A model generated the notes under the pieces. That model saw only the letters and a program-made list of their open reading frames with translations, ran no database searches and was not told the DNA's origin. A DNA stretch of 64,000 nt from Yuukianura sp. NJ FZ-2021 (taxonomy: Eukaryota), in the NCBI GenBank assembly GCA_046563655.1, contig CM102289.1, positions 8,184,001 through 8,248,000 on the forward strand. Direction: 5' to 3'. Below are positions 18,001-38,599 of the stretch, in pieces (the first letter of the stretch is position 1; every line of letters begins with the position of its first letter). A program made the position numbers and the translations under genes.

Positions 18001-21000
18001 TTTTCTAGAAGCAGTGGTGTCCACGAGGATAGTGACACTGAATTTATCATGGTTGCTCCAGCGATCCCACCTCGAAAGCATGTCGGCCAGCCTCCTCCTC
18101 CTGCTACTTCTGGACAGATACCGTCACTCTCCGATTCCATGCCAGCCTTAACGCTAGCTCTCACCTCAACTCCGTTTTCGCTTGGTCGTCATTACCATTC
18201 CCTGTCTTCGTCGTCTCAGTCGACTCAACCACAACCGTCAAGTACTGCTGTCAGTGCAAGCGGGAGTGGAGGGTCACCAGGTCCTAACGAAAGGTGGGTT
18301 GGAAGAATCATCATCGTATAACCTTTATGGCAGTCTATAATTAGAAAATATCGATCGGACTTTTATTGACTATTTTTATTTGAAGGGATGCTAGTCACAA
18401 ATGGGGTTTGAACAAGAAGAAACTTTCACTCAAATTGCGAAAAGGTGAAAAGGAGGACGGCGGCAGCACTGGAAGTAAACGAGAGGATGAAGATAATGAA
18501 AATGTAGAACGGGACGAGAATGGACATGCAAATAAGAATCCGTTCCATCGTGCCAAAAAACACATCAAAACGTTGATCAGTAAGAGATGGAATTTTAGAC
18601 ATTTGCTGCACAATAAAATACTTTTGAATTGGTATGATAATTTTCTGTGTTTGAATTCTTAGCCGGGAGTAAGCAGAAGCAAGACAAACACGAGGCGATG
18701 CTCCTAGAAAGCGATGACAGTGACGCTGATGATGCTGATACGCTTACAATGAATTCAAATAGTAACTCATCTTCTACTCCATCAACCCTGACATTGGACC
18801 AGAATGAACCAGGACAACAGAATCATAGTAATCAACTTCCTCACAATAGTCGTCTCTCATTGGATTCCAAACTAAAATCACAGTCAATGGACTATCATAC
18901 GAAGGACTTCCGGCACACGAGATCCCTAAATTATCCACTTACGGGTTCATCTGCTTCCATACCAGAACACGACTACAATCCAGATGAATCTAGTCAACTT
19001 CATCAGCAAAGGTTTCATAGAAAAATTACCAGAGGGGATGACTACTCCTCTGGGAACACGCCCAGGACAAGGCATGACAGGAGAGATGAACGACGGAAAC
19101 TCATCGCAGAACGCAGTATGGACTCTCGTCATACTTTTGGGAGTTCAGGTCGGCAAGAGTCTTTGGATCGAAGGCGCAGTGAGGAGTTGATGATGTCAGA
19201 TTCTGACTACCGCCGTGGAAGTCGAGATAGCAATCAAAGTGCTGCTGGCAGTCCATCACATTCCAGTCAAGACAGTCTTTTTGACAAAGGATCCCAAAAT
19301 GTACTCAGCCAGAGCTTGTCGTATGGGTTCAGGTATGGAAAATTAATCATTAACTAGCATATAGTTATGAAAAACGTTAGTTGCAAAGTTGTTTTTTCTG
19401 ACAGTGCAAGTACCGCCACCGCAGTATTGGGAAAAACTTCGCACCGGAAAGTTCATATTCGAGAAGAAGCAACTCAACCAAAAGCGTCTAGTACACCGGA
19501 AATGATTACCGGGCGCGACGTTCGACGTACAAGATCCGTTTCAGAATCTCGTCCTGATGGACACAAGAAAGAGTATCCAGCTAATGCTGCACTAGGATCT
19601 ACCGAATTATCTTCGGAGGACATGTCATCAAGTAGTAGCATTGCTAAAAAATTTCAGAACATTCAGAATGGGCACTCACTCGAAAAGTTGACAAAATACC
19701 ACAAGGGAGAAACGTGTGTCATTTGCAGGAAGAATTTGCACGTACTCTTTGCCCCGGGTTGTCGCTGTGAGAAATGTCGCATGTTGTTTCATACAAAGTG
19801 CCTCAGTAGTGGGATCCAAGGAAGACCATGTCTTCTGCCAAGTGAAACTGCTGCTGGAGAAGGCAATGCTGATAGTAGAGGAGTGTTGCAGGGATCAGAC
19901 TCTCCTCCTTCAATGAAATCTCAAGGTGGATCGGGTAGAAAGAAGTACCGGAAACCAAGTAAAAGTACTTCTGATATTACCAAGTCTGGGAACTTTAATT
20001 TGACTGGAACTTCTGAGTTTACTGATCGCACGGATCAAATCATTTCGGGTGTGAAGGAACTTCAATTGATGCAAGAATTTATTTCCAAAAAGGTACAACG
20101 TTTATAAAATTCTGAAATGATCTTTGGCGGATGCTTTTTTACTAATTCTGTTTTTCATTTTTAGATTTTTCAAGTTCGTCACAAAGAAGGAGAGAGAGTG
20201 TCCACCGTTGACCGAGTTTTTCATCAGGCTCTATGTGAATTCAAGGAGTCCTTGGTATCTATCTTCAGCGTTTCGATCAAGCAAGGTGGTGGAATGCCAC
20301 TCAACATCAAGTACAAGGATCTCATTGGAAATTTTGCAAATATTATGGAAACGGTTTGTAAACATGAAGGAACCGCGAATGATTTTCCTACGACCATGGG
20401 CGTGAATGCCTTCAGAGGATTTTTGAATGAATTCATGAATGCCAACCGCGTAGAAGAGAAACCAAAACCCGTGAAATTACGGAAGGAAAGAGGGAAACAG
20501 AAAGGAAGCAAGCGGCAGAAAGTGGATCAGGAAGTGATTCACATGGGGCATCAATTTGTGACTATGGTCATCAACATACCGACAGCATGCGAGGTGTGTT
20601 CTTCCTTCATTATGTGGCCGATTGAAAGAGGCGTTGTATGTCAAAGTAAGTACCTCAAACATAAACTATAATTTAGTTTAGTTCAACTATAATTTAGTAC
20701 GAATGAAACTTACATTACAACCGTAACTTTGTTTGAATCCCTTTCAGAATGCAAACTTGCATGTCACAAAAAGTGTCATCTCAAGATTTTTTCGGAGTGT
20801 CACGACTCTCATGGCAGAACTGGTAGCAGTGGGTCAGAGTCTGGAATCTTTGGTGCTTCCCTCAGATCCCTCGTCAACGAGGATGTAGCCATTCCGGTTG
20901 TGGTAGAGCAACTGGTCACTGCTATTGAGTTTTATGGTTTGAGACAAGAAGGCCTTTATCGGAAGTCGGGTAAGCTAAGCACATTTTCCTGCACTTACTA

Positions 21001-22566
21001 AGATATCATATTTGTAGTTCTAATGAATTTATATCGACGTAGGTGTGAGTTCGAGAGTGCGAGAACTGAAACAGGACCTTGAAGATGGGAAGGACATCGA
21101 CTGGAATGCCTATCCTGTTCATGTGTTGACTTCTGTACTCAAATCGTTTTTTCGAGAACTTCCCGAACCACTCCTCACTTATGAACTGTATGATGAATTT
21201 CTCCGGGCTGCAGATCTCTCTCAACCCGAAGACAGAATTCATACGACTTTTACAATTCTCAAAAAGTTACCCAAACAAAATTATGATCTCATGGAAAGGC
21301 TGGTTTTCCATCTCGTCAGGTTCGTTCATCATTTTTGATTATAATAAGCTGAACCCACATAACGTGATGCATAATGCATTGTTACACAGGGTTTGTCTGT
21401 ACGAGGAGAAGAATAGGATGAATGCTAATTCGCTGGCCATAGTTTTCGCCCCATGCATCCTGGTAAGCTTTACTTTGAAAAAATCATAACTTAACACTTC
21501 GCACAATTTACAAACGGCTTTATTTTCGTTGTTTCAGCGTACAAACAAAACGCGACAAGTTCAAGATTCCTTGAACGATATAAGTCGTCAGACGCTTTGC
21601 ATTGAAACTGTGGTTTCAGAACAATTGAAGAAGGTTAAGGAAACTTTATCCAGCATCGAGTCGGTGGACTCTGCTAGACATTCCTTCTCTGTTCGTCTCA
21701 ACTCTATTAGAAGTTCAAAGGTAAAAACAATCGAATTGTAATTTGTAACAGAGATGGTAATTGACTTTTGTTGGAAATCTAGATGAAATCTCCACCAGAG
21801 CGGAAAAAGATGTCTTCCGGAAGCACCGGATCGCTTAGTGAGGGAAGCAATGAGAAGTCGATGAACGAGTCCACGACACCAGAATCAATGAGTGCAGAAG
21901 AGGAAGAAGAGTACCTTACGAGACACTTGAAACACTTACAAGATGTAATATCAATTGATATCTTCGCTAGGAATTTTGGTTTTAATATATTGCTTTTTGT
22001 GATTTCAGGAAAAGGCAATGCTGACTTCAGTTCTGCCATCACTTTCAAGGACACCTTCGGATGATGAGATGCTTTCCACCGATCCAGAAATTGATAGTCC
22101 TGGAGGCAGTGTGGATGACTTGAATCTACACAGAGAAGGACGGACTCCATCCCCAAGACAAAATCGAGCTCAGTCGCTACAATACTCAAAGTCTGACTCA
22201 CTCGTCGTCGATGCTTTCAATAGCAGTAGTCGACACAGACTTTCACCGACGCTTAGATTACCAGGTAATAACGTTTAAACAAGAATTAGCAAAAGTTTTT
22301 GAAAGTGTACATTTCTTTAGTTTCATACAGTGGTGTCTTTACTTGCATGCACAGCAACTTCGCCACTTCTCCAATTAATCAAGAACAAAGGGCCGGTGAG
22401 AAAGCCACCGTCGAGGTTTGCTCGAAATTTGGCCGTGGTTGACTTTGGAGAGGGTGAAAACGAGGAAGAGGAGGAGCACAGGGTAGATGAAGACGGAGAT
22501 GATGAAGATGATAGCGTTCATTCAGTAGAACAGCCCAGTGCTGCAGATGATGCGATAATCGTCTAG
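4..22566 (+). CDS. MYO9: Unconventional myosin class IX (motor, IQ motifs, two C1 domains, RhoGAP); multi-exon, 5' end lies upstream of the window
   Basis: Spliced exons give switch [19 protein letters not shown] (4-98), [18 protein letters not shown] (845-1006), switch [41 protein letters not shown], a long loop-2 insert starting [27 protein letters not shown] motifs (IQRWYR), C1 domains (~19670-19820 and ~20550-20800) and Rho[37 protein letters not shown]. Last exon stops at 22566. Confidence 0.96.
1554..1827. mobile_element. Degenerate Tc1/mariner-like MITE (274 bp) in a myosin IX intron
   Basis: Left end TA|cagtgttgtctacactaaatag..agacac; right end gtgtctactttttaggtgaactacactg|TA (reverse complement cagtgtagttcacctaaaaagtagacac). 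TA on both sides; internal repeated cccccatatt motifs. Confidence 0.55.
8584..8787. mobile_element. Tc1/mariner (pogo/Tigger-like) MITE, 204 bp, TA TSD
   Basis: TA|cagtagaacctctcgtttcgcaaca ... tgttgcgcaatgagaggttttactg|TA: 25-bp TIR with 3 mismatches. A second copy of the family lies at 14204-14399. Confidence 0.85.
9099..10028. mobile_element. Non-autonomous hAT-superfamily DNA transposon, 930 bp
   Basis: Perfect 18-bp TIR cagggttggcaaaatgac / gtcattttgccaaccctg; perfect 8-bp TSD ctgctggt (9091-9098 and 10029-10036); subterminal arrays of aaaacgtc-like motifs, inverted between the two ends; no transposase ORF. Confidence 0.93.
12251..12270. mobile_element. Right TIR remnant of the 8584/14204 MITE family
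   Basis: cgaaatgagaggttccactg|TA matches the family right TIR; no clean left TIR found. Confidence 0.5.
14204..14399. mobile_element. Tc1/mariner (pogo/Tigger-like) MITE, 196 bp, TA TSD; same family as 8584-8787
   Basis: TA|cagtggaacctctcttttcgcaac..tagctccgcct (shared with the 8584 copy) ... catgttgcccaatgagaggctcgactg|TA. Confidence 0.8.
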
Positions 22567-23797
22567 CAAGTTGGCAAGTATTATGCAAATACTTGCCAAC
22601 CTGGATGCTTGGAAGTTGGGCACAAGCATAACCGTGTGTCTCAAGGGTAGAGTTGAACAAAGTACTACTGCGCAACGCTTGTTTTCCAGTTGTGTAGAGA
22701 GATTTACCCGAATTAGGGTTTTTGTTTTTAGTGTAGATCAAATTATAACTTACTTGACATAAGGTGTCTTTCCTTTGTTAATTTTTTTATTTTTTGAAAC
22801 TCTTTGTGAGTTTTTTTTTGTCGTCGTAAAATCTATTTTACGAGTAATCTATCGATTGTTAAATTATTATAACTTGACTTGTTCAAGTTTGTTCAATGTG
22901 ATTCATATTGTTAATTGTTAGTCATAAAGTTAAGGTGAGGTGACGCCCGGAATCCTATAGCAAGAATTTAAATTGTTCACAGGTATTATTACTACTCAAA
23001 GATTATTATTGTCACGTCTCCATTTACCTTGTGAAGAAAATTGCAATTTAGCAATTGATTCATGATTGTAATTTAGTCGTCACAAAACCAAGTCGTTAAA
23101 TTGTACACCGAGTTTAGAACCGATTGTATTAACTGATCCCACAGAACTAAAGATTGACCGGAAAGAATTACATATTATTATTACTTATATTATTATTATT
23201 AACTATCTTTGACCTCTTGAGGATGCGCGAGAGACCCGATGTTAGAGAATTGTCTTTGTCTAAAAATTGAAAGTTTTAGGATATGGTGCCAAAGAAATTC
23301 TAAGAAAACAAAGACCGCATATCTTGTGATGAAGCGTGATTTTTAAAACTAGATTTTAGCGTCTGCGTTGTACCTCTGTAAGGATGGAACCAACATTATG
23401 AATCCTTATATTACAACTTATTCGTTGTTTTGTGAAGAATTTCCTGAAGAAATTAGAACTGAGCAAAGAGCTAAGAAAATGTGCCCTTAAATGTCAATTT
23501 AACTTCTGTGTCTGTCCATCCAATGAGCCCTTCCGCCTTTCTATTCAATGTATTAAATTTTAAATAATTATAGAAACGTGGAGTCTCTCAAAGTTTTGTT
23601 GAAGTTTGTAAAAAGTTTAAAGATTTACTTTTTATTGGATACTTATATTTGCAATGTAGAATCAAGAACCAACGGTTCTTGACTTTTGTCGTAACTGCTG
23701 ACCTCATAATCTCATTTCTTAAACTTTTCTTTCATATTTAGGGTAAGTGTTTGTAAAATCTCTAGAAAAAGTATTGTTTACAAATTAATTTTTAATT

Positions 23798-24619
23798 TCA
23801 ATTGTTTTTGATGTAGTACACCACAAAAAGGATGGAAGCCCAGAGAGAGAATTCAGTCTTCAGTTGTGAAGCTCCACCTCGTTTGACCTTGACGCAATCG
23901 TCGCTCTTCGGATCATGCAAATACCCGTCCCGGCATACGCATTGCCCAATGTTCGAATCATAATCTTCAGTAGTCCGAACAGTTTTGGGCTTACATTCAG
24001 CATTCTGAACGCAAGCACTCATCTCCTTCCGATACACGAAGAGAGTATCGGTCTTGGTGATTGTGGTGGATCCATTGACGACTTCTGTCCGAGTCTGTGA
24101 CATTTGCTTGGTCAGGTCTGGGTCAATGGCACATTTCGTTCCAATTCGACTGTAACAGGCCTTGATGGACACCGTTTTTGTTTTCTTCTTTCCCGAGGAG
24201 GAAGAACTGCTGTATCCATGGGAAGGTTGCGAAATATGGTCAACGGCCTTGTTTAGTTGGTAGGTGGCGACACCAGCGACGGCTCCAGCAGCCACTGCTT
24301 TCCCTACAGAAACTTTTCCTTTCTTTGGCGAGCGTCTTGAGCGGCTTCGTTCGGAAACTTGGAATTCCTTAGATCCGTAAATCTGGTTAGCAGGATCCTT
24401 ACACCCGCAGATTTTGCTTACGGGGGTGCACATGAGGAACTGGTCAGCATTGCAAGTATCGGGCAATATCTCGGTTCGGTTTTCTGTAGCAGTAGCTATG
24501 GTTACATTTCTAGATTCTTCGCACCGATCTTGGAAGGATGCTCCACCAATGGCTGCAGTACATTGAAGGTAAATGACCAGTAAAAGACAACAGGTTCCGA
24601 TGGCAAAGTTCTTGGCCAT
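23798..24619 (-). CDS. Uncharacterised 273-aa secreted Cys-rich protein with probable GPI-anchor signal; single coding exon
   Basis: Intact ORF with an N-terminal signal-peptide-like segment (MAKNFAIGTCCLLLVIYLQCTAA), Cys modules (CNADQFLMC..CGC; CYSRIGTKC; CVQNAEC..CVCRDGY..C) and a C-terminal GGAS + spacer + hydrophobic tail with almost no cytoplasmic part. Probable 5' UTR intron at about 24634-24683. Confidence 0.8.
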   Translation of the reverse strand: MAKNFAIGTCCLLLVIYLQCTAAIGGASFQDRCEESRNVTIATATENRTEILPDTCNADQFLMCTPVSKICGCKDPANQIYGSKEFQVSERSRSRRSPKKGKVSVGKAVAAGAVAGVATYQLNKAVDHISQPSHGYSSSSSSGKKKTKTVSIKACYSRIGTKCAIDPDLTKQMSQTRTEVVNGSTTITKTDTLFVYRKEMSACVQNAECKPKTVRTTEDYDSNIGQCVCRDGYLHDPKSDDCVKVKRGGASQLKTEFSLWASILFVVYYIKNN

Positions 24620-25554
24620 ATTGACTGGCGCTACTGAAATTTATTTAAAAACTTCTATAAGAATATTTCCAAAAAGAATTTACTTTTGGAGAGAATTGGC
24701 CAATTTCTAGACTTGCTTTTCTTGCTTGGATGTCTTTGTTGTTCTTTGTTTGTCCAGTAACTTAAAACAAGAGTTGCACGCCAAGCCAACAACGAATTTT
24801 CTTTTGTTCTGGAATGAAAAAAAAAACGAAAATAATCACCAGCACGAAATTGCCGTTGTTACTTCTAATGATCACACGCAATTCCTACCTGGATAATGAC
24901 ATTCACATGAACAATAGCTGCGACTTTAATAGCTAATGAAACCTAATTAACGAGACTGCGTCAGTAAAATTGTGTGACCCCTGACTCACCTAAGCTTTTC
25001 ACAATGTGGTGTAATTACAAAGAATATGAAATTAATGAAATGACGAGAAAACGACTAGCAGAAGTTCTTACAAAGAATTGACGGTGACGTTGCCTAATAG
25101 AAAGTCGCCTCTATTTCTTGTGCTCCGCTGAACTACTTTGGGAGAGCGATGAGGGACGATGCCACCACGGCCAAACGATGAACACCTTCCACTAAGGTCT
25201 GGTGGTTGGAGGCAATTTTGGCAATGGATACTGGCAAACTTCTGTAACAATTGAAACGAATCCCCACCCAACTCAACTTGAAATGCACACGAGTCAACGT
25301 ATGAAATACAAAAACGAATTCCAATTTGGGATAGGCTTAACTTTTACAATACGACATAGCCAGTATTTTTTAGGATTAGTATTTGTAATTCTAATAATAT
25401 CCACCCTAAATACAAAAGAAGTTGTAAATAAACACAATAAACAAAGACAAAACGATGAAAAACTTCGCTCTGACTTTTGAACCGTCGTCGACGGATGCTG
25501 CAAAAGAACTGCTAAAAACTACAAGGAATATTTCTTTGAAATTTTAAATAATAA

Positions 25555-27360
25555 AAAGTTTTTGAAAATTAAAATGAAATTTTGAAATTTTATATCTCGT
25601 GAACGGAAAGCGATTGAGTCCTAATCTCTTCGCGAAAAACTTTCAAAAAATATGAAGAATTTTTAGGAATGCTAAAAACTCCAAAAGCGAACATCAACTT
25701 TTTCGTCAAATTTTGAAAAAAACCATGGACTATAGTCCATGGATTTTTTCGAAATTTGGTCAAAATCTGAGGGTACCTTTTTATAATTTCTAAAAATACT
25801 ATATATTTTTGTGAATTCAGGGGCGAAGAGTTTACCTCTCTATCACTTTCCGTTCCTGAGATATGAATTTTGAAAGTTTTTGAAAATTAAAATGAAATTT
25901 TGAAATTTTATATCTCGTGAACGGAAAGCGATTGAGTCCTAATCTCTTCGCGAAAAACTTTCAAAAAATATGAAGAATTTTTAGGAATGCTAAAAACTCC
26001 AAAAGCGAACATCAACTTTTTCGTCAAATTTTGAAAAAAACCATGGACTATAGTCCATGGATTTTTTCGAAATTTGGTCAAAATCTGAGGGTACCTTTTT
26101 ATAATTTCTAAAAATACTATATATTTTTGTGAATTCAGGGGCGAAGAGTTTACCTCTCTATCACTTTCCGTTCCTGAGATATGAATTTTGAAAGTTTTTG
26201 AAAATTAAAATGAAATTTTGAAATTTTATATCTCGTGAACGGAAAGCGATTGAGTCCTAATCTCTTCGCGAAAAACTTTCAAAAAATATGAAGAATTTTT
26301 AGGAATGCTAAAAACTCCAAAAGCGAACATCAAGTTTTTCGTCAAATTTTGAAAAAAACCATGGACTATAGTCCATGGATTTTTTCGAAATTTGGTCAAA
26401 ATCTGAGGGTACCTTTTTATAATTTCTAAAAATACTATATATTTTTGTGAATTCAGGGGCGAAGAGTTTACCTCTCTATCACTTTCCGTTCCTGAGATAT
26501 GAATTTTGAAAGTTTTTGAAAATTAAAATGAAATTTTGAAATTTTATATCTCGTGAACGGAAAGCGATTGAGTCCTAATCTCTTCGCGAAAAACTTTCAA
26601 AAAATATGAAGAATTTTTAGGAATGCTAAAAACTCCAAAAGCGAACATCAACTTTTTCGTCAAATTTTGAAAAAAACCATGGACTATAGTCCATGGATTT
26701 TTTCGAAATTTGGTCAAAATCTGAGGGTACCTTTTTATAATTTCTAAAAATACTATATATTTTTGTGAATTCAGGGGCGAAGAGTTTACCTCTCTATCAC
26801 TTTCCGTTCCTGAGATATGAATTTTGAAAGTTTTTGAAAATTAAAATGAAATTTTGAAATTTTATATCTCGTGAACGGAAAGCGATTGAGTCCTAATCTC
26901 TTCGCGAAAAACTTTCAAAAAATATGAAGAATTTTTAGGAATGCTAAAAACTAAAAAAGCGAACATCAAGTTTTTCGTCAAATTTTGAAAAAAAACCATG
27001 GACTATAGTCCATGGATTTTTTCGAAATTTGGTCAAAATCTGAGGGTACCTATTTATAATTTCCAAAAATACTATATATTTTTGTGAATTCAGGGGCGAA
27101 GAGTTTACCTCTCTATCACTTGCCGTTCCAGAGATATGAATTTTGAAAGTTTTTGAAAATTAAAATGAAATTTTGAAATTTTATATCTCGCGAACGGGAA
27201 GCGATTGAGTCCTAATCTCTTCGCGAAAAACTTTCAAAAAATATGAAGAATTTTTAGGAATGCTAAAAACTAAAAAAGCGAACATCAACTTTTTCGTCAA
27301 ATTTTGAAAAAAACAATGGACTATAGTCCATGGATTTCCCTTCCTGAGATATGGATTTTC
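25555..27360. repeat. Tandem array of a 318-bp monomer (5 full copies plus one internally deleted copy); each monomer is an imperfect inverted repeat
   Basis: tgaaaattaaaatg recurs at 25563, 25881, 26199, 26517, 26835 and 27154 (period 318, last 319). Perfect palindrome ccatggactatagtccatgg at 25723, 26041, 26359, 26677, 26996, with a mutated copy at 27314. Confidence 0.97.
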
Positions 27361-27866
27361 CAAAAAATATAAAAGTAGTTTTAATAGATGAAAAAGTTCA
27401 GGGATTAATCCCTTCAAAAGGCATCACTTTTTTACTCAACTTTTTCACATTGACCATGAAAACAAAAATTTCAATCATCAAAATGTCGGATATCTTTCTT
27501 AAAATTTTCAGAAATACTACTTATTTTTAGAAAAGTTTAAAACTACAACTTCCATTTTAGTATTATTCAATCCTTTGGGCACGATGAAACATCACGTCCA
27601 TTTCGCAGCTTTTAATTTTCACGATAGGTTAGCACGAGAATTGCTTCTAAGGATTTCTGTGTCGTTTGATTGCAATCTGTTCCCCCATCGTAACTATTCC
27701 ATTTCCAATAACTTCATAAATTAGAGTACATACGTTGTTGCCTACACAAAATACTTGTCTACCGAGTAAAACGAATTTAGTACAGTTGTAACATTCAAAG
27801 ACGAAACTCGCATGGAAAGCGTAGCTTTCCAGTGTCGAACTATAAGAAGGTAACAAAGATTTAGGT

Positions 27867-29474
27867 ATGGAAAATCAAACAGACGTCGGCGTCACAACGT
27901 GTGGACAGTACTTGACAGGTGACACGGCTTACGTCCTCTTCAATTGCGTCATTTTGCTGTTGATGATACCGGGATTTAGCTTCTTCTACAGTGGACAAAC
28001 GCAGATAGGAAGTTCAGTTACTATTCTTGCACTACCGTTCTTGTCAATTGTTATAATTACCTTGCAATGGTGGCTGGTTGGCCATTCCTTAGCATTTAGC
28101 AAAACATCGAGTTGGTTTATCGGAGATTTCTCAAACGTATTTCTTCAAGGCGTCTATGATTGCACCAATCCAGAGGCTCCAAAGGTTCCTGAGATGGTTT
28201 TTAGCTTATACCAGTGCATTACTGCCATGATTCCTGCAGTGATCCTCATTGGAGCCGTCGCAGAGAGAGGCAGAGTGTTTCCTGCCGCCATATTCATACT
28301 GCTCTGGACGACGCTCGTCTATGATGTCGTTTGTTACTGGTCGTTGAATCCAAATGGCTGGTCATTTCGGATGGGCCGTAAGTTCAAGCATAGAGGTTTT
28401 CCTGGAATTGAAATTTTGATTTTAGTAAGATTAACTTAGCGTGTTTATAGTTTTAGATTATGGCGGGGCTAGTCCCGTTCACGTACCTGCTGGAATGACT
28501 GCCATTGCGATTACCAGAATTGTCTCCTACCCATCTAGTCAAAGCGCTGCGTGCCCACATGGAATTCGTTGTGCGAATCAAGTAGTCTTTGGAACCATAT
28601 TGATTTGGCTTGGCAGTTTTGGAAACATGGCGGGTGGCGGTTATAAACGAATCGAAATAAAAGTTTCTGAGTGGTGGAAACATCGATTTCTAATGATTTT
28701 GGTATGGTTTTTCAGCAATGTCTGCAAATTCGAGTGGAATTTTTGCTACTGTTGCTGTGGGGCTGGCAGGGAGTTCTGGAGCAATGACTTGGAGTCTCAT
28801 TGAATACTGGTGGCAAAGAAAAGCTTCAGTCCTAGGAAGTTGTAATGGTGCACTGGTCGGCTTGGCAGCGATTACTCCTTGCGGGGGTTTTATTAGTCCA
28901 AGTTCCAGCATTTCAGTTGGAGTCATCACTGCGATTGTCTGTTACGTCGCTACTCAACTGAAAGAAAAATACAAGTTCAATGACGTCATGGAAATCGTTG
29001 TTATACATGGTGTCAGCGGGGCTGTGGGCAGTATTCTAACAGTATGTCTAAACGCTTCATAAATTTCCATTAATAAGCGGAAATGATTTTCTTCCTTCGC
29101 ACAATTACCTAATTTGGAATGCGTTTAACCAGGGCATTCTATCACAAAACGTTTATGGCGGGAAGGGGCTGGAAGAGGACCAAAATGGGGGCTGGATGGA
29201 CGGAAACTGGATTCAAGTTCCAATCCAATTGCTGGACATAATCGCTGCTGGAGCCTGGAGTTTTTCGGTTTCTTACATAATTTTATTTACTTTCACTAAA
29301 ATTAAATTTTTGAAACTCCGAGTTTCCGAGCAAGTGGAATTGGCCGGCTTAGATAAGTTTGAAGCTACCGAAGATTCCTTTGAGCGTCAAATTTTCGAAA
29401 CTTTGAAATCCGAACTAATGATACGAGAGAAAACTCATTCCAAATTGCCAATAATTACGATAGAGTTAGAGTAG
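27867..29474 (+). CDS. Ammonium transporter family protein, MEP/AmtB-type (fungal-like); 4 exons, about 455 aa
   Basis: Exons 27867-28377, 28451-28639, 28716-29041 and 29133-29474 join in frame. Motifs: GDTAY..LMIPGFSFFYSG, QWWLVGHSLAFS..FIGD, GAVAERGR, NPNGWSFRMG, LDYGGASPVH, GLAAITPCGGF, VIHGVSGAVGSILTG, LRVSEQVELAGLD. Confidence 0.92.
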
Positions 29475-30923
29475 TTTGCAAAATATTTGATTCCTAAAGA
29501 CCAAGGTTTTCCAAATTCTTATCGTAAATGTTTCGAAAATTGCAATAAAATAAATAACCTCATCATGTAGTTTATCAGTTCTTTCGTTTTCCTTCCTGTT
29601 TATGATCCATCTTACTTCTTAATACTCTCTTAAAAATTGTTTCAGCGAAAACCTCGAATGATTAAAGAAAGTAGGTCAATTCGATAAGGAGGTGATGAGT
29701 TCCTATCAGTATAAGACGTGCAACGGTGGAGTCAAGGAGAAATTTGTCATTCTGTTGACTTTTTTAAGTGGTAATAGCAAATTAATTGAACAATTAATAC
29801 AATTAGCAGTTAGATAATCATTGCCACGTTCCCCATAAAAACTACCCTATCAAAATTTTAAAACAAAAGTGTTGGAAATTCAATACAGTGTGAGGTACAC
29901 GAATGACCTTATTCTGCTCTCGTACTCTTTGTGAGGAAAGTTGCTGAAGGGCAAACTTTCGCCCCGAATCATTTTGGTTATATCCCACTTTTGCTGTAAA
30001 ACCTAGGTTTTTGGGGTACTATATCGGAATTCGCAAAAAAAAATGGCAGTTATAAAAAGTTCACAAAAATTTTGCAGGAAGGTTTCGCTGTAACAAAGTT
30101 GCAAAAAATGTAGACAATTTACCGTTAAGTCACTTTAGGCGTGACACATTCAGTCGTCTTTTGTTGACGTATTTAAAGTGGATTAAACCAGCGTTACTTT
30201 AACTGAGTTCTTTTGTTTAAACATTTAACGACACCGAAGTGTGATAAAAATTTGAAACAATGGCCTTGTTAAGTTTAGTATCTTAAGAGTTCTTCCTGCG
30301 ACAAGGGTAAGTTTCTAAATAAGTTTCACAACTAAAAGTTAATGTACTTGGTAACGTTATAAAATAGTGTATGTTCAAGCGCAATTTCATGTAACTATAC
30401 ACCGGGGTGGGTCAAGTAACTCTAAACTAAACAAACTACGTTTAGCCAAAGCGTCCAAGTCGATAAACTGCAAGAATTTAATTCTGAGAAAAAATTGTAC
30501 CCAGAAACCTAATTAGTAAATTAAATTAGCGTTTCCTTGGATCCTCTAACACCATTAGTTTTTGCACTCCCAGTACATCGCCCTAGGACGTCTCAGTTCG
30601 TGGTTTGTGGTTTCGATAATTCTGTAAAGCAGAATCAGATAGACATATTTTTAACAATTTACCGCAAATCAGATCTTCCGCACTCACAGAAACTGTTATT
30701 TCAGATACCGAAAAGCCTGTGAACCCAGAAACCAAGTCACAAACAAACAATGCCAGGAAGTCATTCAACATCAGAACCAGGCTCAACAACGGAATTAGCA
30801 TTCCTTGCAGGTTCCTCTTAAATGGAGCAATTCGCACTTAAGTTACCTGCTGAAAACAACGCTACCTGGACAGTGAACAGAAACAAGGTCTAAATTGTTG
30901 CAAAAATCAACTAAATTTTCAAG

Positions 30924-33900
30924 ATGCCGGACAGAAGTACTATTTCTCAATTTCTTCGTCCAAGGAATTTACGCGTAATCGTCGTAGCTCTAGCAGTTGG
31001 ATCCCTTCTTCTTACTGTTGTTTACATTTTCGGTGGACTATTTCTAATTGAAGAATCGTCACCTACAATTCAAGCACGTCTAGAGCCAAAACTTGGTTCC
31101 ACGGAAGACGGGATTCAACTTAACGATATTTCTAGTCATAGCGTTGATTCCGTCGAAAGAGCGCGTGCTTATTGGAATGATACTGGAGACTATGACAAAC
31201 CGGGTACCTGTCGTCCAATTCCAGAGTTTACACCGGAATTGGACAGCAACAAAATTTATCCGTCTCTTGGATTTGATGTAAGACAGTTCCTAAAGACATA
31301 ACATTTTCAAAGTTGTGCAAAAATTCTAACTCATTCTAACAATTTTTAGGATAGCTGGGTAGGTGGAAAGGACTACTGGAACACATTTTTTGAAGAGAGA
31401 TACAAAAAAGTGAAGGAATCGAACGCTACGCCGTACTTGAAAGTTTTCGTAATTCCGCATTCCCATACAGATCCTGGATGGCTACTAACTTTCGAAGGCT
31501 ACTTTGAACAAAAAGTTCGCAATATCATTGACAATGCAGTGGACAAATTGGAAGAACTTCCGATGATGAAATTTCAGTTAAGTGAAATTTCATTTTTGGC
31601 TAAATGGTACAAGTATGCCCATCCTTCCAGGAGAGATACGCTTAAAAAATTAGTCAAAGAGGGGAGACTGGAAATTGCAACTGGTGGATGGACAATGACA
31701 GTAAGTCAAATATCGTTATAAACGAAAAACCAAACAACAATTCAACACCACAAAATAAATTTTGTCCAGGACGAAGCTGGAGTAAATTTGTATTCCATGA
31801 TTGACCAACTCGTAGAAGGACATCAATGGGTCAAAACACATCTAGACGTCATACCAAAAACTTCTTGGTCCATCGATCCGTTCGGTACAACCATATAAAT
31901 TTTGAAACGGGGATATCCAATGTTATAATGAATCTTCTGTGCAGGTCATGGTTCAACATTCCCGTATATTTTAAACGCTGCCGGACTGGACGGAATGATA
32001 ATTCAAGTCAGTAAACCATTCCACATTCGTTAATCAATTGGTTTAGTATAGAATATAGATTTATATGCTACTTTCTCCTACAGCGAATCCACTACGCCTG
32101 GAAGAAATACTTTGCGGAACACCAGAAAGGCGACTTTAAGTGGGTGCAGCGATGGGATTCCGGAAATAAACATAGCATACTTTGTCATAACGCTCCGTTT
32201 GACATTTACTCCATCAAACATTCATGCGTAAGAATCTCACATCAACAATAGTCGTACTTTGGAATTTTCAAAATTTAAAAAAGAAATTTTTGATTCTGTC
32301 CTTACAGGGTCCCACACCGCAAGTACGTTTTGCAAAAAAATTCTTCTATCGATCGAATGTTTTCAGAAAATCTAACACTCGTCTATTTTTGGTTCCAGAT
32401 TTGCCTGAATTTCGACTTTCGGAGCATTATTGATGAATACGCAGAAAATTCTTACATAATGCAGCCTATTACCAAGAATAATCTGAAAGATAAAGCAGAA
32501 CTTCTTTTAGAACAGTATGCAAGGGCAGCATCTCTATTTCCACATAACGTAGCTCTGGTATCGCTGGGCGACGATTTCCGCTACAACCATGCCATTGAGT
32601 GGAACCAACAGTACTACAACTATTTAGCTCTCTTTAACTACATAAATGCTCACAAGGATAAGTACAAGGCGGAACTTCAATTTGGGACAATTTCAGACTA
32701 CTTCAAGGTAACAATTGCACACAACTCTACCATATAACTGTGTTGTAAAAAGCTAAAAGTTTGCAATGACTTAGGCCGTACGCCAACGGACATCGACATT
32801 CCCAACATTTTCTGGAGACTTCTTCGTTTACAGTGACATTTTCAGCGAAGGTCGTCCAGCATACTGGAGCGGCTACTTTGGAACACGTCCCTACTGGAAG
32901 AAGTTCTACCGGGAAACTGAAAATGCTGTCCGAAGTGCTGAAATTTTGTATACCATTGCCACCGCCCATGCACGACAAAATAAACAGATCAACACCCTGG
33001 TAATCATGAATCGTGAATACGAACATTTGGAAGTTGCCAGACAATGGTTAGCTCTGTTTTCACATCACGATGCTGTTACTGGGACGAGCAAGGTACTATG
33101 ACTTTTCTGCAAAGATTCAAAAAAGAAGTTTAAAACTAAAACTGATTTGTGAAATTAGGCAAACACAATGGACGATTATGGACACAAGCTTCTGGAAGCA
33201 AAACAGAATAGCCTAAAAATTCAACAACTCGCAATAAATTCTCTCCTATTTGGTGGAAATGAACATTCTCACCTGTCCATGGATAATGAACAAGCCACAT
33301 TTGAACTGCTACCGAAAAAAGTTCCACTGAAATTGACCAACGACACTGTGCAAGAGAAGAAAGTCATTCTGTTCAACAACTTAGGCTGGAAGAGAAGTCA
33401 TTTAGCAAAGGTCATCATAACTACGCCGCACGTTAGAGTCATTGGACCTAATGGAGAACCCATAGCATCACAAGTAACGTTAACCTATCTTTAAACTTAA
33501 CAATTTCTTAACTCTGCGGTTAACTGATGCCAAGATGCCATTTTTTCAGTTAAATCCAATCATGGATCTTAGTGGCCCAACGCCGGCCATTTCCCCGTCA
33601 ACTTTTGAACTGTCGTTCATTGCCTCACTTCCACCACTGTCAATTTCAACTTTCACCATAAAGAAAACGTTACCAGGAAGTGAAAATATGGCCATTCCAG
33701 CATCTGTATACTGTGCAAATTGCACAGGGTTACGTGGTTTGTTTGAAATCAATTCCTTTGAGGTAAAAAACACTCTACAATATTTGAAATGAAATTAAAA
33801 TTTAAAACTGAGCTGAATTGTTTAAAAGGCTGGAAATATTCAACTCACAAGCGACAGAGTACAACTGCTGTTCGACCGTAGTACTGGATTTCTCCTTGGA

Positions 33901-35176
33901 ATCAAAATGCTAAACGACAACATTGCAATAAATTCAAAACTAAGTTACGGATCCTACAAATCGATTGAGTTCAGAAGCGGAGCGTATCTCTTAAAAGTGG
34001 ATACCAGAAGCGTACCAGAGGTAAGAAAATCGCAACTTAAACGATTTTAACATTACACTAATAAACTAATGGACCACTGACAATGCTTCTGGGTTGCAGC
34101 CGATTCCATTTTCAGCAGAAAGCACAAAAATCTTCATCATCTCTGGACAACTTTTCTCAGAACTGTCGGTAGCAAGTGACCCACTTCTAACTTCCACACA
34201 AATCATGCATGCCGGTGGACTTCCATTTGAAGATGGAATTTATATCCAAAACAAGATCAATCTTGGACGAAGGAAAGGCGAAATCTTTATGCGATTCGAC
34301 ACAGATCTGGATTCCAGAACGACTGCAACTGACGGCGACGTTGTTGGCCCCACTCCTACGTTCTACACAGATCAAAATGGATTTACAATTGAAAAGCGAA
34401 CAAAAGTATCAAAAATTAACCTGGAAGGAAACTATTACCCAGTCAATACGGTATCATACCTACAAGATGAGTCTCAGGGGATCCGTTTCTCAGTGCTCGT
34501 TGACAGAGCACACGGATTCTCTTCATATGAAAATGGACGTCTAGAAACGTTAATAGAACGACGTACGGTTTACGACGATGCTAGAGGAATGGGGGAAGGA
34601 GTTACGGACAACCGCGAAACGATTTCAAACTATGTGATATTGGTAGAAAAAATACTGCCATCTTCGGAACAAACCAGTGGAAATGGTTACCATAACCTAG
34701 TACCGACGATAACTGTTCATCATACCTCCCTAGCTCTAAACTATCCGCCATCTTTGTTTGTCCTGGACTATGAAAACTTCCCAAAGAAGTTCCCATTGTC
34801 ACAAGTGACGACTCTTCTATCCAAACAACTTCCTTGCGACACCCATCTAATCAATGTCAGAACAATGTCAGAGGATAAGAAATACGACGTCGACACAATT
34901 CTACCATCAAGAAAGGCGTTACTGATTGTCCAGAAATTGGCGTACTATTGCAAGTCTGGGGAAACTAATAAGAATACTACGAGTAATTGTGGTGCTGAAA
35001 ACGGAAGGAACTCTAGATTCTTCTACACAGGGACAACGTTGACCAGAGTCAACGTTCGGAAGTTGACGGAGACTGCTCTCACAGGAATTGACAACAGTAC
35101 CTTTAGAGATATTAGACGTTTAGAAGATGTGAGAGGGGACCCCTTCCAAATCAAGAGTATAATGCTTCAGTTTTAA
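30924..35176 (+). CDS. MAN2A: Golgi alpha-mannosidase II family (GH38), type II membrane protein; multi-exon
   Basis: N-terminal TM anchor; [17 protein letters not shown] (Zn ligands), [22 protein letters not shown] (nucleophile), [58 protein letters not shown]. Confidence 0.95.
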
Positions 35177-35551
35177 AGTATTTAGTTTTCATAAAAACCG
35201 TGTGAGAACGATAGTTGAATAGTAATCTATAATTCTAAGCAAAGCTAAATCCAAATATTAAGACCCTGCAAGTGCTAAGTGTGTACCTTAACCTCACAAA
35301 TAACGAGTCTCTCCAGCCTAACCATGATACAGTCGAGGAGTAATTATAATTTTAACGTTTTAACGAAAACTATAAATTAAAGAATCGTCTATGAAACTAA
35401 ACCATTGGGCCGGGCTACTCTTTCATTAATCCTTGTAAATCTAAAGGCATCACCAATCACGCAGCAGCGACCAATCATAACGCAGAGGTAAGTTAAGCAG
35501 TGTGCACAGATACTATGATGTAATCAAAAGTGTAAATACCCGTCGCCAGTT

Positions 35552-36238
35552 TTAGAAATCAGTGACTCTGCCTTTCCGTTCCCAGTCGCCGTATCTTGTA
35601 GGTTCCGGACCCCTCGGTCTAAAAAAAATATCGCTAAATTGTTGGGTACCGACGTCGTAATAGTATTAATCAGTGTTGGTATTAGTCTTACCCTCCTATT
35701 TCACCAGTTTCGGGATTAGTATTGTTTGGAAACGGTATCAGAGGTTCCTTTTCACGATATGGATGCTGTCCTTCTTCCAACTCGTCAAGTTTACCTAAAA
35801 ATGATTGTACAAAAGTGAATACGTCGTCCAGACTAAGAAATGCTAAAGAATAACGCTCCTCAAGAGTTCCCGTCGTATCAAACACTTGCTAGTAGTATAG
35901 ATACCGGCAACCGGATAACCATGTCATACCATCGCACATGTCCAATTCGCCAATTCAGAACTATTTCATAATTTTATGATTATAAACTTTATTATTCATT
36001 TACCGATTGGTGTTTTGACCTTCTTTGGCTGCTGCGACGTATTTTCAGAGCGAAGGTCACCGGATCTGGTAGTGCTGGAGGTTGACATTGACACTGCTCT
36101 TCCGGTTCCGTGTACACGTTGTAATCGTGGGAGATCCGCCGTCGTCCAGCGAAGCCTATTCAGCGAAGTCCGATGCAGTCCACTCTGGGTCCGGACGGCG
36201 ATTGAAAACGATGACCAAGCTGCCATTAAATTCACCAT
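35552..36238 (-). CDS. SDHAF4: Succinate dehydrogenase assembly factor 4 (Sirup/Sdh8 family), 134 aa, 3 exons
   Basis: Exons 36238-36004, 35794-35692 and 35618-35552 join to ...[60 protein letters not shown], the family signature C-terminus. The Arg/Ser-rich N-terminus fits a mitochondrial presequence. The last exon is missing from the ORF track. Confidence 0.95.
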
Positions 36239-36526
36239 GATTAATTGATTACCCTAAATCAAATGTGCCGTTCGTTGCCGTCCCTCCTTCCTTCCTCTTC
36301 TTCATAAAAAGATTCAACTCCGGAAACAGCTGATTAAACAGTTTACAACATCAAAAAGACAAACATTCAATAGTAAACAAAACACCTCGCAGGTGACAGA
36401 TAAGAGAGCTCACCGCGCGAGTGGTAGCGGTAAACCGTGCGCTAAAACGTAAAGTTTTGTGTGCGCATTCGCAAACTCCCGAGATACAAACAAGAGACGT
36501 ACATAAAGAATTTAACAACAGGGTAA

Positions 36527-37255
36527 AGCCTCTTTCACACCGGATACGTCGTAACAACTGCCGACGGCAGTTGTGACGGCGTATCCATTCACACCAAACC
36601 AACTCACCGCCGGTGAGTTGGACGACGGAAGAGAAAGTTGACGGCGGAAGAAGGGTGAGGTGTTCACATTGCCTCACGGCTGCCGCCGTCACATTTTACG
36701 CCGTCAACTCTTCCTACAGGAGGAGATGGGACCCCCAAAAGTTGAAAAGTTTCAACTTTTGGACCAACTCCGGACGGACAGTTCCCATCTCATCCCAGCT
36801 GATCATCCTTCCCTCCTTCTTTCTACGTAATCTGCAGTACCGAAGTAGGAAAAACAAAAGTATAACATTGTTTAAGTGTTAATTAATAGCTAATTGTGCT
36901 AATTAGCTATTAATTTGTGTTAATACATCACCCTATAGGGAAATACGTTGGCTACTCCTCCCAAAGCATGGTAATAGAGCAATTACACATGAATACTTGT
37001 AATCATTTGGTTGTTTTCAATTCATTTACTTCATTTGTCTTCCCATATGAAACTGAAAGGCGCCTTTCAAGAATTGTGACCAAATGAAGCTGTATCACAC
37101 CGAGACCGGCGTATAACTTTCCGTAGAAAAAATTTACGGCGTAAAAAGAACCGGTGGTGCAGTGTGAAACCCTTCAACAACTATCTACGGCAGTTTGTTA
37201 CGCCGGCACAACTGCCGTCGGCAGTTGTTGCGGCGTATCCAGTGTGAAAGAGGCT
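36527..37255. mobile_element. PIF/Harbinger-type MITE, 729 bp, TAA TSD
   Basis: TAA|agcctctttcacaccggatacgtcgtaacaactgccgacggcagttgtg ... cacaactgccgtcggcagttgttgcggcgtatccagtgtgaaagaggct|TAA: 49-bp TIR with 3 mismatches; TAA at 36524-36526 and 37256-37258. Confidence 0.92.
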
Positions 37256-38599
37256 TAAAGGACGGAGGAGGAAAAGGCGAAGGGTTTCATGTAAAAAAAA
37301 AGTCAAAAAGTAGCAGAGCAGAATCTTTCCATCCAACATCCAAAAAAGTATTGAATTTGATTTGTTTTTGGCTTCTCTCTGTTAAAATCTACTGAAGGGT
37401 TAGACTAACTTCACACATTTACTATCTAGTAAACTCATCTTGAAACACAGATCCACTTCTACTAACCATCGAAGAACATAAGGAATACTAATTCAGTTAA
37501 TTGGTCTAAATCACTTTCGTTTGTCTCGTCACTTGGTTGCTCGTGTAAAGGATGGAGAACTCCACGTACTATTAGCTGAATCCGTACAAGTAATCTTTTC
37601 GTAGTACGGTAGGTCACCTTTGTTATTTGGTAGTATCAATCAACTAATTTAAAGCTTAAATACTAAATACTGTACCTTGGTTTGCATTTTTGACTGGTTT
37701 TTATAGCACATTTGTGTGCAGCTTTGAAAGCTATTCACAGTGCTGTAAAAACCAGTTACTTTGTACTTGTAATAATAAGTTGTAACTTTTTCTTTGTTTT
37801 TGATAACCATATCAAACTAACAAAACAAGAAACACTTAGCTACAGTTGGTCAAAGTGTCTGAATATACCTCTGTTTTTATATGCTTATTTGTTAACTAAA
37901 CCTCAACCTCCTTTCTCTTTTTTTTATATTAGTCACCACAATCCAAGTACGAGGATTAGAATTGATCTAATTACTTCTACGGGTCTGACTATTGAAGTCC
38001 ATCCGAAAATTACATTTGTAACAACTCAGGAATCTGACCTCAACCGCACAAGGCACAAGCTCCCACCGCTACCACCACAACACCTATCACGTCACTAGTG
38101 TTTGCCCTCCTCATTGGACATCTACCGAGGAAGGGACACGGTTACGCACAGGGCACTTCCTTTCTTCATAGTTTAACTCGGATTGGCTGAGACATCGTTT
38201 CAACTAAAGTCTAGAGAGCTCACAAAGTAAGCACATTAGCTACTAATCAAAAAACAACTATGTTTTTACCTAACTACTCGCAAGTATTGACCTATCTTGT
38301 GTAACAGGTCGTCTTGCAACTTAACCGGGCAGTTATGGCACTTTGGCGGCGACTATGACTGCGCTAGTAATCGTGTCAACAACAACCTACCTTTGTACGA
38401 CTCACCGACGGTGACGTGGACGTGATTGGTCACTTCTAAGGAAAACACTCTTCCTACCACTCGTTTCCTAGGTCTACCCTCGTCGGTAGCATTCAAGTCC
38501 GTCAAAATTGGTGGATTATTTAGCAAGGATACAGCCGGAGAAAAGAGAGTACTCCTCCCAAGATCGTCGTCGTCAGTCGTAACAGATCGGGAGGTCATC

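Follow-up and report, generated by a model that had tools for sequence, protein, structure and literature searches.

A strongly derived MEP-type ammonium transporter gene of probable fungal origin in a springtail-like genome

A 64,000-nucleotide stretch of DNA, the whole of which we call the window, carries an intact Amt/MEP gene at 27867–29474 (+), which consists of four exons with 455 codons and three short GT..AG introns. Judged from its sequence and those of its relatives, the gene is a strongly derived paralogue in an old, fast-evolving arthropod branch of the MEP family of ammonium transporters, and the locus is best explained as a gene that belongs to the genome of a springtail-like hexapod and is kept there by selection. 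The history that we consider fairly probable is an ancient transfer from a fungus into the springtail lineage, followed by duplication and divergence, with the gene now resident and maintained by selection.

Gene structure and family assignment

Enumeration of GT..AG combinations gave 18 frame-preserving models, across which intron 3 and the acceptor of intron 2 had a single solution; the final exons were chosen by alignment to homologues and to two related genomic loci, L001 and L002. An acceptor at 28455 and donors at 28616 and 28634 were rejected because they remove conserved residues, including the Asp of the LDxxGG motif, or open gaps relative to the homologues, L001, and L002. The spliced 455-residue protein has no internal stops, in agreement with the intact four-exon gene described in an initial annotation of this DNA. 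Exon 1 (27867–28377, +) comprises the ATG, 170 codons, and one further nucleotide, encodes the N-terminus and the start of the Amt/MEP domain (PF00909, E 9e-21), and contains the derived sequences QCITA and YWSLN in place of canonical QGMFA and WTWN. Intron 1 (28378–28450, +; 73 nt, GTAAGT..TATAG, phase 1) recurs at the same position and phase in L001, L002, and the read-through fragments P0059 and P0061. Exon 2 (28451–28639, +; 63 codons; PF00909 E 0.0028) encodes LLDYGGASPVHV, which carries the first of the two pore His residues along with the conserved Asp; the exon also encodes IWLGSFGNMAGG, where WFGWFGFNGGS is canonical. Intron 2 (28640–28715, +; 76 nt, GTTATA..TTTCAG, phase 1) has a weak donor, yet its position and phase are kept in L001 and L002. 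Exon 3 (28716–29041, +; ~108 codons; PF00909 E 1e-23) encodes the second pore His (VVIHGVSG) and is followed by intron 3 (29042–29132, +; 91 nt, GTATGT..ACCAG, phase 0). Exon 4 (29133–29474, +; 113 codons and TAG; PF00909 E 8e-09) encodes the final helices and a cytoplasmic tail with LRVSEQVELAGLD. Two overlapping AATAAA hexamers ~70 nt past the stop codon (29544–29554, +) form a candidate polyadenylation signal. In a crude hydropathy scan, the spliced protein had ~10 strong hydrophobic segments, which is compatible with the family.

Translations of all four exons matched PF00909 (Ammonium_transp) at successive profile positions (4–143, 149–206, 223–322, and 332–396 of 399), and three of the four exceeded the Pfam gathering score, exon 2 falling below it (16.9 bits vs a cut-off of 23.2). 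Searches of the PDB with exons 1 and 3 each returned 28 matches at E ≤ 0.001, the top eight of which were Mep2 chains in both cases (best E 6e-21 for exon 1 and 4e-17 for exon 3); the exon 2 region was barely recognizable against Mep2 structures (E 0.02–0.03). These best solved relatives are fungal Mep2 transceptors (5aez/5aid/5af1 and 5aex), which we take to be the Candida albicans and Saccharomyces cerevisiae proteins. They outranked 2b2f as well as the "ammonia channel" chains of AmtB for both exons, and no Rh-named chain was present among the 28 matches for exon 1 or the 28 for exon 3. As the initial annotation had proposed, an assignment as MEP-type rather than Rh-like is supported by these sequence matches, with trees that contained no AMT1/AMT-clade or Rh sequence. 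All of the motifs that it had quoted in favor of this assignment (LMIPGFSFFYSG, SLAFSKTSSWFIGD, GAVAERGR, YDVVCYWSLNPNGWSFRMG, GGWMDGNWIQVPIQLLD, and LRVSEQVELAGLD) are present in the translations.

The window protein shares with Mep2 the PF00909 fold, the twin His, an LD[FY]xGG motif containing the Asp, the vestibule Trp, and a C-terminal LRxxxxxExxGxD motif, but differs in having QCITA for QGMFA and GSFGNM for GWFGFN, with replacement of both gate Phe residues, and alignment of its C-terminal tail with the fungal tails breaks off after the GLD motif. Prokaryotic AmtB/Amt-1 channels (the 1u7g family and 2b2f) have the same family membership and pore architecture but are more distant than Mep2 (for exon 1, E 1e-17 against 2b2f and 1e-09 against AmtB); to our knowledge, a GlnK-type partner context is not to be expected in an animal genome. 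In BLASTP with the spliced protein, a check that had been suggested for this gene, the best matches were mostly Mortierellomycotina transporters, including Entomortierella chlamydospora P0243 and Linnemannia elongata P0253, at 41–44% identity over about 413–448 residues. These fungal proteins differ from the window protein in retaining canonical gate residues. No fungal protein compared was more than 44% identical to the window protein, which is therefore a strongly derived copy and not the typical fungal MEP that had been supposed. According to PMC4814505, animals generally have genes for AMT and Rh, fungi carry MEP only, and MEP is the type of fungi and prokaryotes. Mosquito Amt and other AMT-clade proteins of animals, like the Rh glycoproteins, share with the window protein the superfamily and a presumed theme of ammonia handling (PMC4814505); they form clades of the superfamily other than MEP.

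Relatives, phylogeny, and origin

Conserved MEP genes were found, among the best 120 of 4919 matches listed, in two springtails, Folsomia candida (with two genes) and Orchesella dallaii, and in a fly, Bradysia coprophila; the animal names among the best 34 and the best 120 matches listed were Folsomia, Orchesella, Bradysia, and Brachionus. The arthropod proteins (Folsomia P0227 and P0265, Orchesella P0228, and Bradysia P0005) are annotated as "ammonium transporter 1(-like)" but are MEP-type, are encoded on animal contigs of 1.2–15 Mb, and keep every canonical pore motif, unlike the window protein. Bradysia P0005 is 71–72% identical to P0227 and P0228 and 67% identical to P0265, and its next matches after the springtails, again among the best 120 of 4919 listed, are Mortierellomycotina proteins at 62–67%. 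In an ESM Atlas search with P0227, all matches were generic Amt clusters that bore the label Streptophyta or Bacteria. We found no published description of a springtail MEP lineage; the supplements of a compendium of metazoan horizontal transfers (PMC13342648) may list the Folsomia genes, and the word "ammonium" is absent from three supplementary files of the Folsomia genome paper.

The window gene itself belongs to a divergent clade with five fragments (L001, L002, P0059, P0061, and P0204) from metagenome or run assemblies. Its closest relative is L001, with 65% identity over exon 1, and phase-1 introns interrupt the same two codons in the window gene, L001, and L002. Members of this clade are only 44–59% identical to one another, and the window protein is 39–40% identical to the conserved arthropod copies and 37–42% identical to Mucoromycota proteins; two further loci, L003 and L004, stood at 37–38% identity. 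The initial annotation had implied a recent transfer private to one lineage, which does not hold in light of the distance of the gene from the fungal proteins compared, the homologues in two springtail genera and a fly, the low identity within its own clade, and saturated synonymous sites. Nor is the window gene a lone acquisition: divergent relatives exist, and conserved MEP genes are present in Folsomia, Orchesella, and Bradysia.

A maximum-likelihood tree, which had also been suggested as a check, was computed with 40 rows, including four outgroup rows, and without AMT1 or Rh sequences. In this careful tree, the arthropod and fungal rows were split at 100/100 from the four outgroup rows, the divergent clade was supported at 100/98, and the conserved arthropod clade was supported at 99/93. 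These two clades were sisters at 80/86 (77 SH-aLRT in a quick tree), and support of 83/83 placed the joined arthropod clade within the fungal radiation, Basidiobolus being left outside. Because arthropod sequences are nested among fungal MEPs in this way, a fungal origin is the best explanation for the gene as far as sequence comparison can indicate. A polytomy forms the backbone of this tree and singles out no donor lineage, and the Mortierellomycotina form a clade at 100/100 that excludes the arthropod sequences. The stem of the divergent clade is long (0.89), and long-branch effects are therefore possible.

In the history that we favor, a MEP gene would have entered the genome of an early member of the springtail lineage, or of an earlier hexapod, by horizontal transfer from an early-diverging fungus of Mucoromycota grade. 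The gene would then have gained spliceosomal introns, adopted the codon usage of its host, and been duplicated. One paralogue would have stayed conservative, as in Folsomia and Orchesella and as also found in Bradysia, and the other, which includes the window gene, would have evolved very fast.

Could the divergent and conserved clades have been acquired separately, in at least two independent transfers from related early-diverging fungi, with Bradysia perhaps marking a further event? We regard this course of events as rather unlikely. It draws on the limited support for the join between the two arthropod clades and on the first quick trees, in which Mortierellomycotina, the conserved arthropod clade, and the window gene or its clade branched from a single polytomy. 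In addition, Bradysia groups with Folsomia (81/52 in the careful tree) instead of falling outside the springtails, which fits poorly with simple vertical descent within hexapods. Nevertheless, the best tree unites both clades in the quick and the careful analyses, and three fragments with conservative motifs (P0099, P0145, and P0346) show read-through at the phase-1 site of intron 1 of the divergent clade, a hint that this intron is shared.

Vertical inheritance of a MEP-type gene from the opisthokont ancestor, with retention only in springtails, a sciarid fly, and a rotifer after many losses, appears unlikely to us. AU tests did not reject trees in which all fungi form one clade with the arthropod sequences outside, either with Smittium and Brachionus included (p 0.134) or without them (p 0.060). 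The proposal of fungus-to-animal transfer in the initial annotation is thus upheld in part: the free maximum-likelihood tree nests the arthropod sequences inside fungi, but a tree with animals outside is left unrejected. The MEP-type protein of the rotifer Brachionus branches near the base of the tree, a point in favor of vertical descent, but it does so on a branch of 2.4 changes per column that was flagged as unreliable. Identity levels also speak against vertical descent. The conserved arthropod copies are 59–65% identical to Mortierella, Rhizopus, and Bifiguratus proteins, which matches the 59–68% observed between subphyla within Mucoromycota and exceeds the 40–58% between Mucoromycota and Dikarya rows. 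Moreover, since animals are reported in PMC4814505 to have AMT and Rh, vertical inheritance of a MEP gene would require very many losses.

Pore residues and the divergent clade

In the alignment, the two pore histidines of the window protein (in SPVHV and VIHGV), its conserved Asp (in LLDYGG), and its vestibule Trp (in CYW) all fall in the canonical columns for these residues and are thus retained; the roles assigned to the columns are those described in the AmtB literature. The Phe gate, by contrast with the comparison sequences, is absent: the first Phe column is Thr and the second is Asn. All comparison sequences that cover the gate columns keep Phe; the first motif contains Phe in 11 of 11, and the second reads W-[TA]-W in 10 of 11, Folsomia_b being gapped at that column. 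The GWFGFNxGS motif is altered as well, with Trp changed to Ser and Ser to Gly. These replacements characterize the divergent clade, in which the outer-gate Phe has become Thr or Ser, W-T-W has become W-S-L, and GWFGF has become GS[FY]G[NY]. Q-x-[IV]-[TS]-A and W-S-L-N are common to all six members (the window protein, L001, L002, P0059, P0061, and P0204), and GS[FY]G is present in the three of three whose sequence reaches the motif.

The inner-gate Phe is essential in E. coli AmtB, and the role of the Phe gate in conduction by Amt, Mep, and Rh proteins is debated. Because both outer-gate Phe residues and their neighbors are replaced, the outer constriction of the window protein probably differs in its gating, rate, or selectivity, and loss of the inner-gate Phe could, on the alignment, mean a loss of ammonium conduction.

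Taken to its extreme, this last reading would make the gene a decaying relic, a copy that has drifted since duplication and whose gate substitutions record loss of function. The replaced gate and adjacent pore residues, the sub-threshold Pfam score of exon 2, and the weak intron 2 donor would fit such decay, as would the terminal branch of the window gene, which is 3.85 changes per column when the gene stands alone in the tree, compared to a median of 0.21. Several observations nevertheless make decay very improbable. First, the reading frame is open across 455 codons. Second, the same derived residues recur in six of six clade members despite their low mutual identity. Third, in three pairwise comparisons within the divergent clade, pS was 0.76–0.80, which is saturated, and pN was 0.26–0.39, a contrast that indicates long-term purifying selection; dN/dS could not be computed because of this saturation, and the pN–pS contrast was the only measure of selection used for the clade. 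Finally, the twin His, Asp, and Trp have been kept.

Host residence and biological meaning

The gene lies between animal genes, as the initial annotation had stated. Upstream is a myosin-IX-like host gene (4273–21489, approximate boundaries, +) with Myosin_head and C1 matches on its exons, and downstream is a GH38 alpha-mannosidase II gene (30915–35176, +) with matches to the GH38 N- and C-terminal domains. Springtail proteins are the best matches of the latter, with Allacma fusca (48%), Folsomia candida (39%), and Orchesella dallaii (40%) as the best named matches for a GH38 exon. The transporter gene also resembles these springtail-like genes in its introns and composition: its coding sequence has a GC content of 0.45 and a GC3 of 0.44, within the range of 0.35–0.48 for 10 host exons, and its codon fractions correlate with those of the same exons at r = 0.84. 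Outside the gene, an array of a 318-bp satellite (25555–27337; 5.6 copies, 98% matches) ends ~530 nt upstream of the ATG. Short-read contigs break at this high-copy satellite, which separates the gene from its upstream neighbor. None of the contigs listed bridges the gene to either neighbor, and physical linkage therefore rests on the window assembly. In run X5, which is labelled "DNA?", two GT..AG-bounded skips were seen in neighboring genes (20645–20748 and 37607–37932), depth on the satellite was low, and one contig spans 28486–28957 with intron 2 retained.

The satellite and the missing bridge would suit an assembly artefact in which a fungal contaminant fragment was joined to an arthropod scaffold, but such a join is scarcely credible given that no fungal protein compared exceeds 44% identity, that introns, GC3, and codon usage are host-like, that the depth of the gene contig in run X1 (238.8) lies within that of the flanking-gene contigs (196.6–249.8), that positions 27985–28867 recur with no differences in run X4 from a second study, and that L001 shares its 17.5-kb contig with other eukaryotic genes that contain introns.

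By homology, the window protein is predicted to form a trimeric channel in the plasma membrane, with 11 helices in each subunit; this channel would recruit NH4+ and conduct NH3, alone or together with H+, along a pore that the twin histidines line. Its physiological role we can only infer; it may lie in how an animal that feeds on fungi and detritus excretes or otherwise handles ammonia.

A bolder reading, which we put forward tentatively and regard as more doubtful than not, is that one copy of the captured and duplicated MEP gene founded a maintained subfamily that dispensed with the otherwise universal Phe gate and kept the twin-His pore, giving an animal channel with a new mechanism of gating or selectivity. 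If true, this subfamily might be tied to nitrogen excretion in animals lacking Malpighian tubules, as springtails do, and the sciarid fly copy nested among springtails would mark a second transfer, either from arthropod to arthropod or in parallel. The divergent clade, with both Phe residues replaced under purifying selection and the twin His kept, amounts to a natural experiment on the Phe gate. If it is confirmed that springtails and a fly maintain a MEP lineage, the fungal genes that soil arthropods have domesticated, most of which encode enzymes, would come to include one for a membrane transporter, and the finding would bear on nitrogen handling in these animals.

An intact MEP-type gene in host DNA

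The Amt/MEP gene of the window is made up of four open segments at 27867-29474 (+). With a start at the ATG at 27867 and a stop at the TAG at 29472-29474, 18 combinations of GT..AG introns preserve an open frame. All 18 models agree on intron 3 (29042-29132) and on the acceptor of intron 2 (28714-28715), and alignment with homologues left a single model without junction gaps. This model has exons at 27867-28377, 28451-28639, 28716-29041, and 29133-29474 (+), introns 1-3 of 73, 76, and 91 nt (phases 1, 1, and 0; 30-34% GC), and a product of 455 residues. Translations of all four exons matched consecutive parts of Pfam PF00909, the exon-2 match being weak (16.9 bits versus a cut-off of 23.2), and contained every motif from which the initial annotation had proposed a fungal-type MEP ammonium transporter. 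Two overlapping AATAAA hexamers (+) lie ~70 nt past the stop codon.

Searched against all PDB chains, exon 1 matched 28 distinct sequences at E <= 0.001; ranks 1-8 were Mep2 chains (E 6e-21 to 2e-18), followed by 2b2f (1e-17) and then by AmtB 'ammonia channel' chains (about 1e-09). Exon 3 gave the same order, and Rh-named chains were absent from the PDB matches of both exons. Among 341 proteins, the best matches of the spliced window protein, mostly Mortierellomycotina, were 41-44% identical over about 413-448 residues, and the Orchesella protein was 41.6% identical. According to PMC4814505, AMT-clade and Rh genes form the general animal set and fungi have MEP only; by that split, it is unusual for an animal to carry a MEP-type gene.

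Several observations bear on host residence. First, ORFs upstream of the gene match Myosin_head and a C1 domain, and those downstream match the GH38 N- and C-terminal domains, with an ArfGap gene beyond. A 368-residue GH38 exon gave 20 matches, the best named ones in Allacma fusca (48%), Folsomia candida (39%), and Orchesella dallaii (40%, spanning 74% of the query), followed by crustaceans and insects, and the window therefore comes from a springtail-like hexapod not close to those three species. Second, the GC (0.45) and GC3 (0.44) of the gene are within the spread seen in ten host exons (GC3 0.35-0.48), with codon fractions correlated at r = 0.84. Third, five public sequencing runs from two studies contain the stretch. 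In run X1, depth was 238.8 on the contig carrying the gene (27341-29550) versus 196.6-249.8 on flanking-gene contigs, and 27985-28867 was present with 0 differences in X4, a run of the second study whose coded organism label differs and whose flanking genes showed 95-100% likeness. No contig among the pieces listed for these runs bridges the gene to either neighbour, the satellite breaking contigs upstream, and physical linkage thus rests on the window assembly and equal depth. Weighed against this depth and the recovery in a second study, an assembly artefact is poorly supported, and these analyses show an intact, host-embedded, MEP-type gene.

Directly upstream of the gene, 25555-27337 is occupied by an array of 5.6 copies of a 318-bp satellite (98% matches); satellite contig depth in the public runs was four to five hundred times gene depth (about 33,000-130,000 versus about 240), making this a major satellite of the genome. 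Between the array and the myosin-IX-like gene, a single-exon 280-codon ORF at 23798-24640 (-), which had no Pfam match, encodes many Cys residues between a hydrophobic segment at the N-terminus and a hydrophobic tail at the C-terminus, and may specify a lineage-specific secreted or membrane protein. Depth in X4 was very uneven, at 309 over 20000-25251 (the myosin end and this ORF) versus 3-9 for everything downstream (27813-36226). The segment 36227-37428 is high-copy (depth 3,000-5,000 in X1 and X2), and contigs of X1, X2, and X5, three runs of one sample, skip 729-737 nt (36523-37262), which suggests a polymorphic repeat or transposon insertion downstream of the mannosidase gene.

Conservative and divergent MEP lineages

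In a word-indexed search with exon 1 (34 matches among 732 candidates), a Bradysia coprophila 'ammonium transporter 1-like' protein (P0005; 45%) outranked ascomycete MEPs and a Brachionus protein. Used in full as query, P0005 found top matches in Folsomia candida (P0227, 71%; P0265, 67%) and Orchesella dallaii (P0228, 72%), each encoded on contigs of 1.2-7 Mb; next, among the best 120 of 4919 matches, came dozens of Mortierellomycotina at 62-67%, and below them other Mucoromycota, Glomeromycotina, Basidiobolus, and Ramicandelaber. An arthropod MEP lineage of conservative sequence therefore exists, represented by at least two genera of springtails and a sciarid fly. Its members, annotated in databases simply as 'ammonium transporter 1', keep all canonical pore motifs and are 59-65% identical to Mortierella, Rhizopus, and Bifiguratus proteins, a level that matches identity between Mucoromycota subphyla and exceeds that of Mucoromycota versus Dikarya rows (40-58%). 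The monogonont rotifer Brachionus calyciflorus has a MEP-type protein (P0028) with canonical gate residues, whose very long branch lies close to the base of the group formed by fungi and arthropods; the rotifer may have acquired it independently.

When exon 1 was searched exhaustively with HMMER against 1.84 billion representatives, it had 4615 matches at E <= 0.001, five of them at E <= 1e-30 and the best 52% identical. The odd residues of the window protein recur in the top fragments, P0059 and P0061, and in P0204, found later. Homology of P0059 and P0061 ends exactly at the end of window exon 1, as expected from a gene caller reading into the phase-1 intron. An alignment of clade sequences, scanned against JGI metagenome contigs, gave 86 pattern matches, from which four loci were confirmed; L001 was 65% identical over exon 1 and L002 47%. 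In their DNA, both loci have phase-1 introns at the two codons interrupted by window introns 1 and 2, and each has one extra intron. The 17.5-kb L001 contig also holds intron-bearing UDPGT-like and LamG-like ORFs.

At 1338-2898 (+) of the L001 contig, beside the gene most closely related to that of the window, is an intron-bearing glycosyltransferase; its C-terminal exon matched UDPGT, GT28, and bacterial EryCIII-like macrolide glycosyltransferase profiles to a similar degree, and it could be another foreign-derived gene. The ENA and Logan fragments P0099, P0145, and P0346 have conservative MEP motifs and a read-through end after 'GG', the phase-1 intron 1 site of the divergent clade; if they are arthropod genes, intron 1 is common to both paralogue types.

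Phylogeny and origin of the arthropod genes

As sole member of its clade in a tree of 59 rows, the window protein had a terminal branch of 3.85 changes per column (median 0.21) and no resolved position. With four partial relatives added (42 rows), a quick tree supported the divergent clade (98) and the conservative arthropod clade (97), both in a polytomy with fungal subphyla; in the quick best tree the two were already joined, with support 77. The careful tree (LG+C20+F+G4 PMSF, 40 rows, 475 columns) comprised 37 of roughly 345 proteins, the window protein, and the spliced partial L001 and L002 proteins, left out the long-branched Smittium and Brachionus, and used four outgroup rows, Methanogenium and three labelled prokaryotic by assumption. 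Support (UFBoot/SH-aLRT) was 100/98 for the divergent clade, 99/93 for the conservative arthropod clade, 80/86 for their union, 100/100 for Mortierellomycotina, 100/100 for fungi plus arthropods versus the outgroup, and 83/83 for an arthropod clade within the fungal radiation with Basidiobolus outside. Beyond these groupings the backbone is a polytomy, so that no donor can be named.

A probable fungal origin of the arthropod MEP genes is indicated by the family type, by their nesting within fungi when the tree is unconstrained, by the pattern of identities, and by a patchy distribution among animals, and the moderate tree support suggests a single old transfer followed by duplication. The two arthropod clades might instead derive from separate transfers, a rival to be set against the support for their union. 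Within the conservative clade, P0005 groups with Folsomia and not outside the springtails (81/52), a hint that the fly received the gene in a transfer of its own or kept it from a hexapod ancestor. A rival to fungal origin, vertical descent followed by massive loss, has the nesting of the arthropod clade within fungi against it; AU tests of a tree with all fungal rows in one clade and the arthropods outside returned p 0.134 (42 rows) and 0.060 (40 rows), near rejection but not rejected.

It is well known that springtail genomes contain genes from fungi and bacteria (see PMC4987106 and PMC5490193). Our literature search found no paper on MEP-type transporters in springtails or Bradysia, and 'ammonium' was absent from three supplementary files of the Folsomia genome paper; the supplements of a metazoan HGT compendium (PMC13342648) might list the genes. 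We rate the family and the phenomenon as known, and the animal MEP lineage and its gate-less subfamily as unreported.

Replaced pore residues in the divergent clade

In all six divergent-clade members, Q-x-[IV]-[TS]-A replaces Q-x-M-F-A and W-S-L-N replaces W-[TA]-W; LD[YF]GG[AG] replaces LDFAGG in the four members reaching that motif, and G-S-[FY]-G-[NY] replaces G-W-F-G-F in the three reaching the last. The Phe of the first motif is kept in 11/11 comparison sequences (four arthropod, one rotifer, five fungal, and one archaeal), and W-[TA]-W in all ten that cover the second motif, Folsomia_b being gapped there. Pairwise amino-acid identity among the window, L001, and L002 proteins is 44-59%, with synonymous proportions of 0.76-0.80 (saturated) versus non-synonymous proportions of 0.26-0.39, and the clade is therefore old and under purifying selection. 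The derived pore residues are conserved features of the clade and not random decay, and a decaying relic is a poorly supported account of a gene with replaced gate residues. The clade forms a sister lineage, divergent and maintained by selection, whose members have introns and pore substitutions in common.

Retention of the twin His, Asp, and vestibule Trp residues argues that a pore is still there, and homology suggests a channel function for the window protein. Neither gate phenylalanine is retained, and the neighbouring Trp and Ser have also changed; from these replacements, the outer constriction is predicted to be wider and more polar, which should alter gating, rate, or selectivity. E. 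coli AmtB has an essential Phe at its inner gate, which cautions against assuming ordinary ammonium conduction. Speculatively, the protein might serve in ammonia excretion or scavenging.
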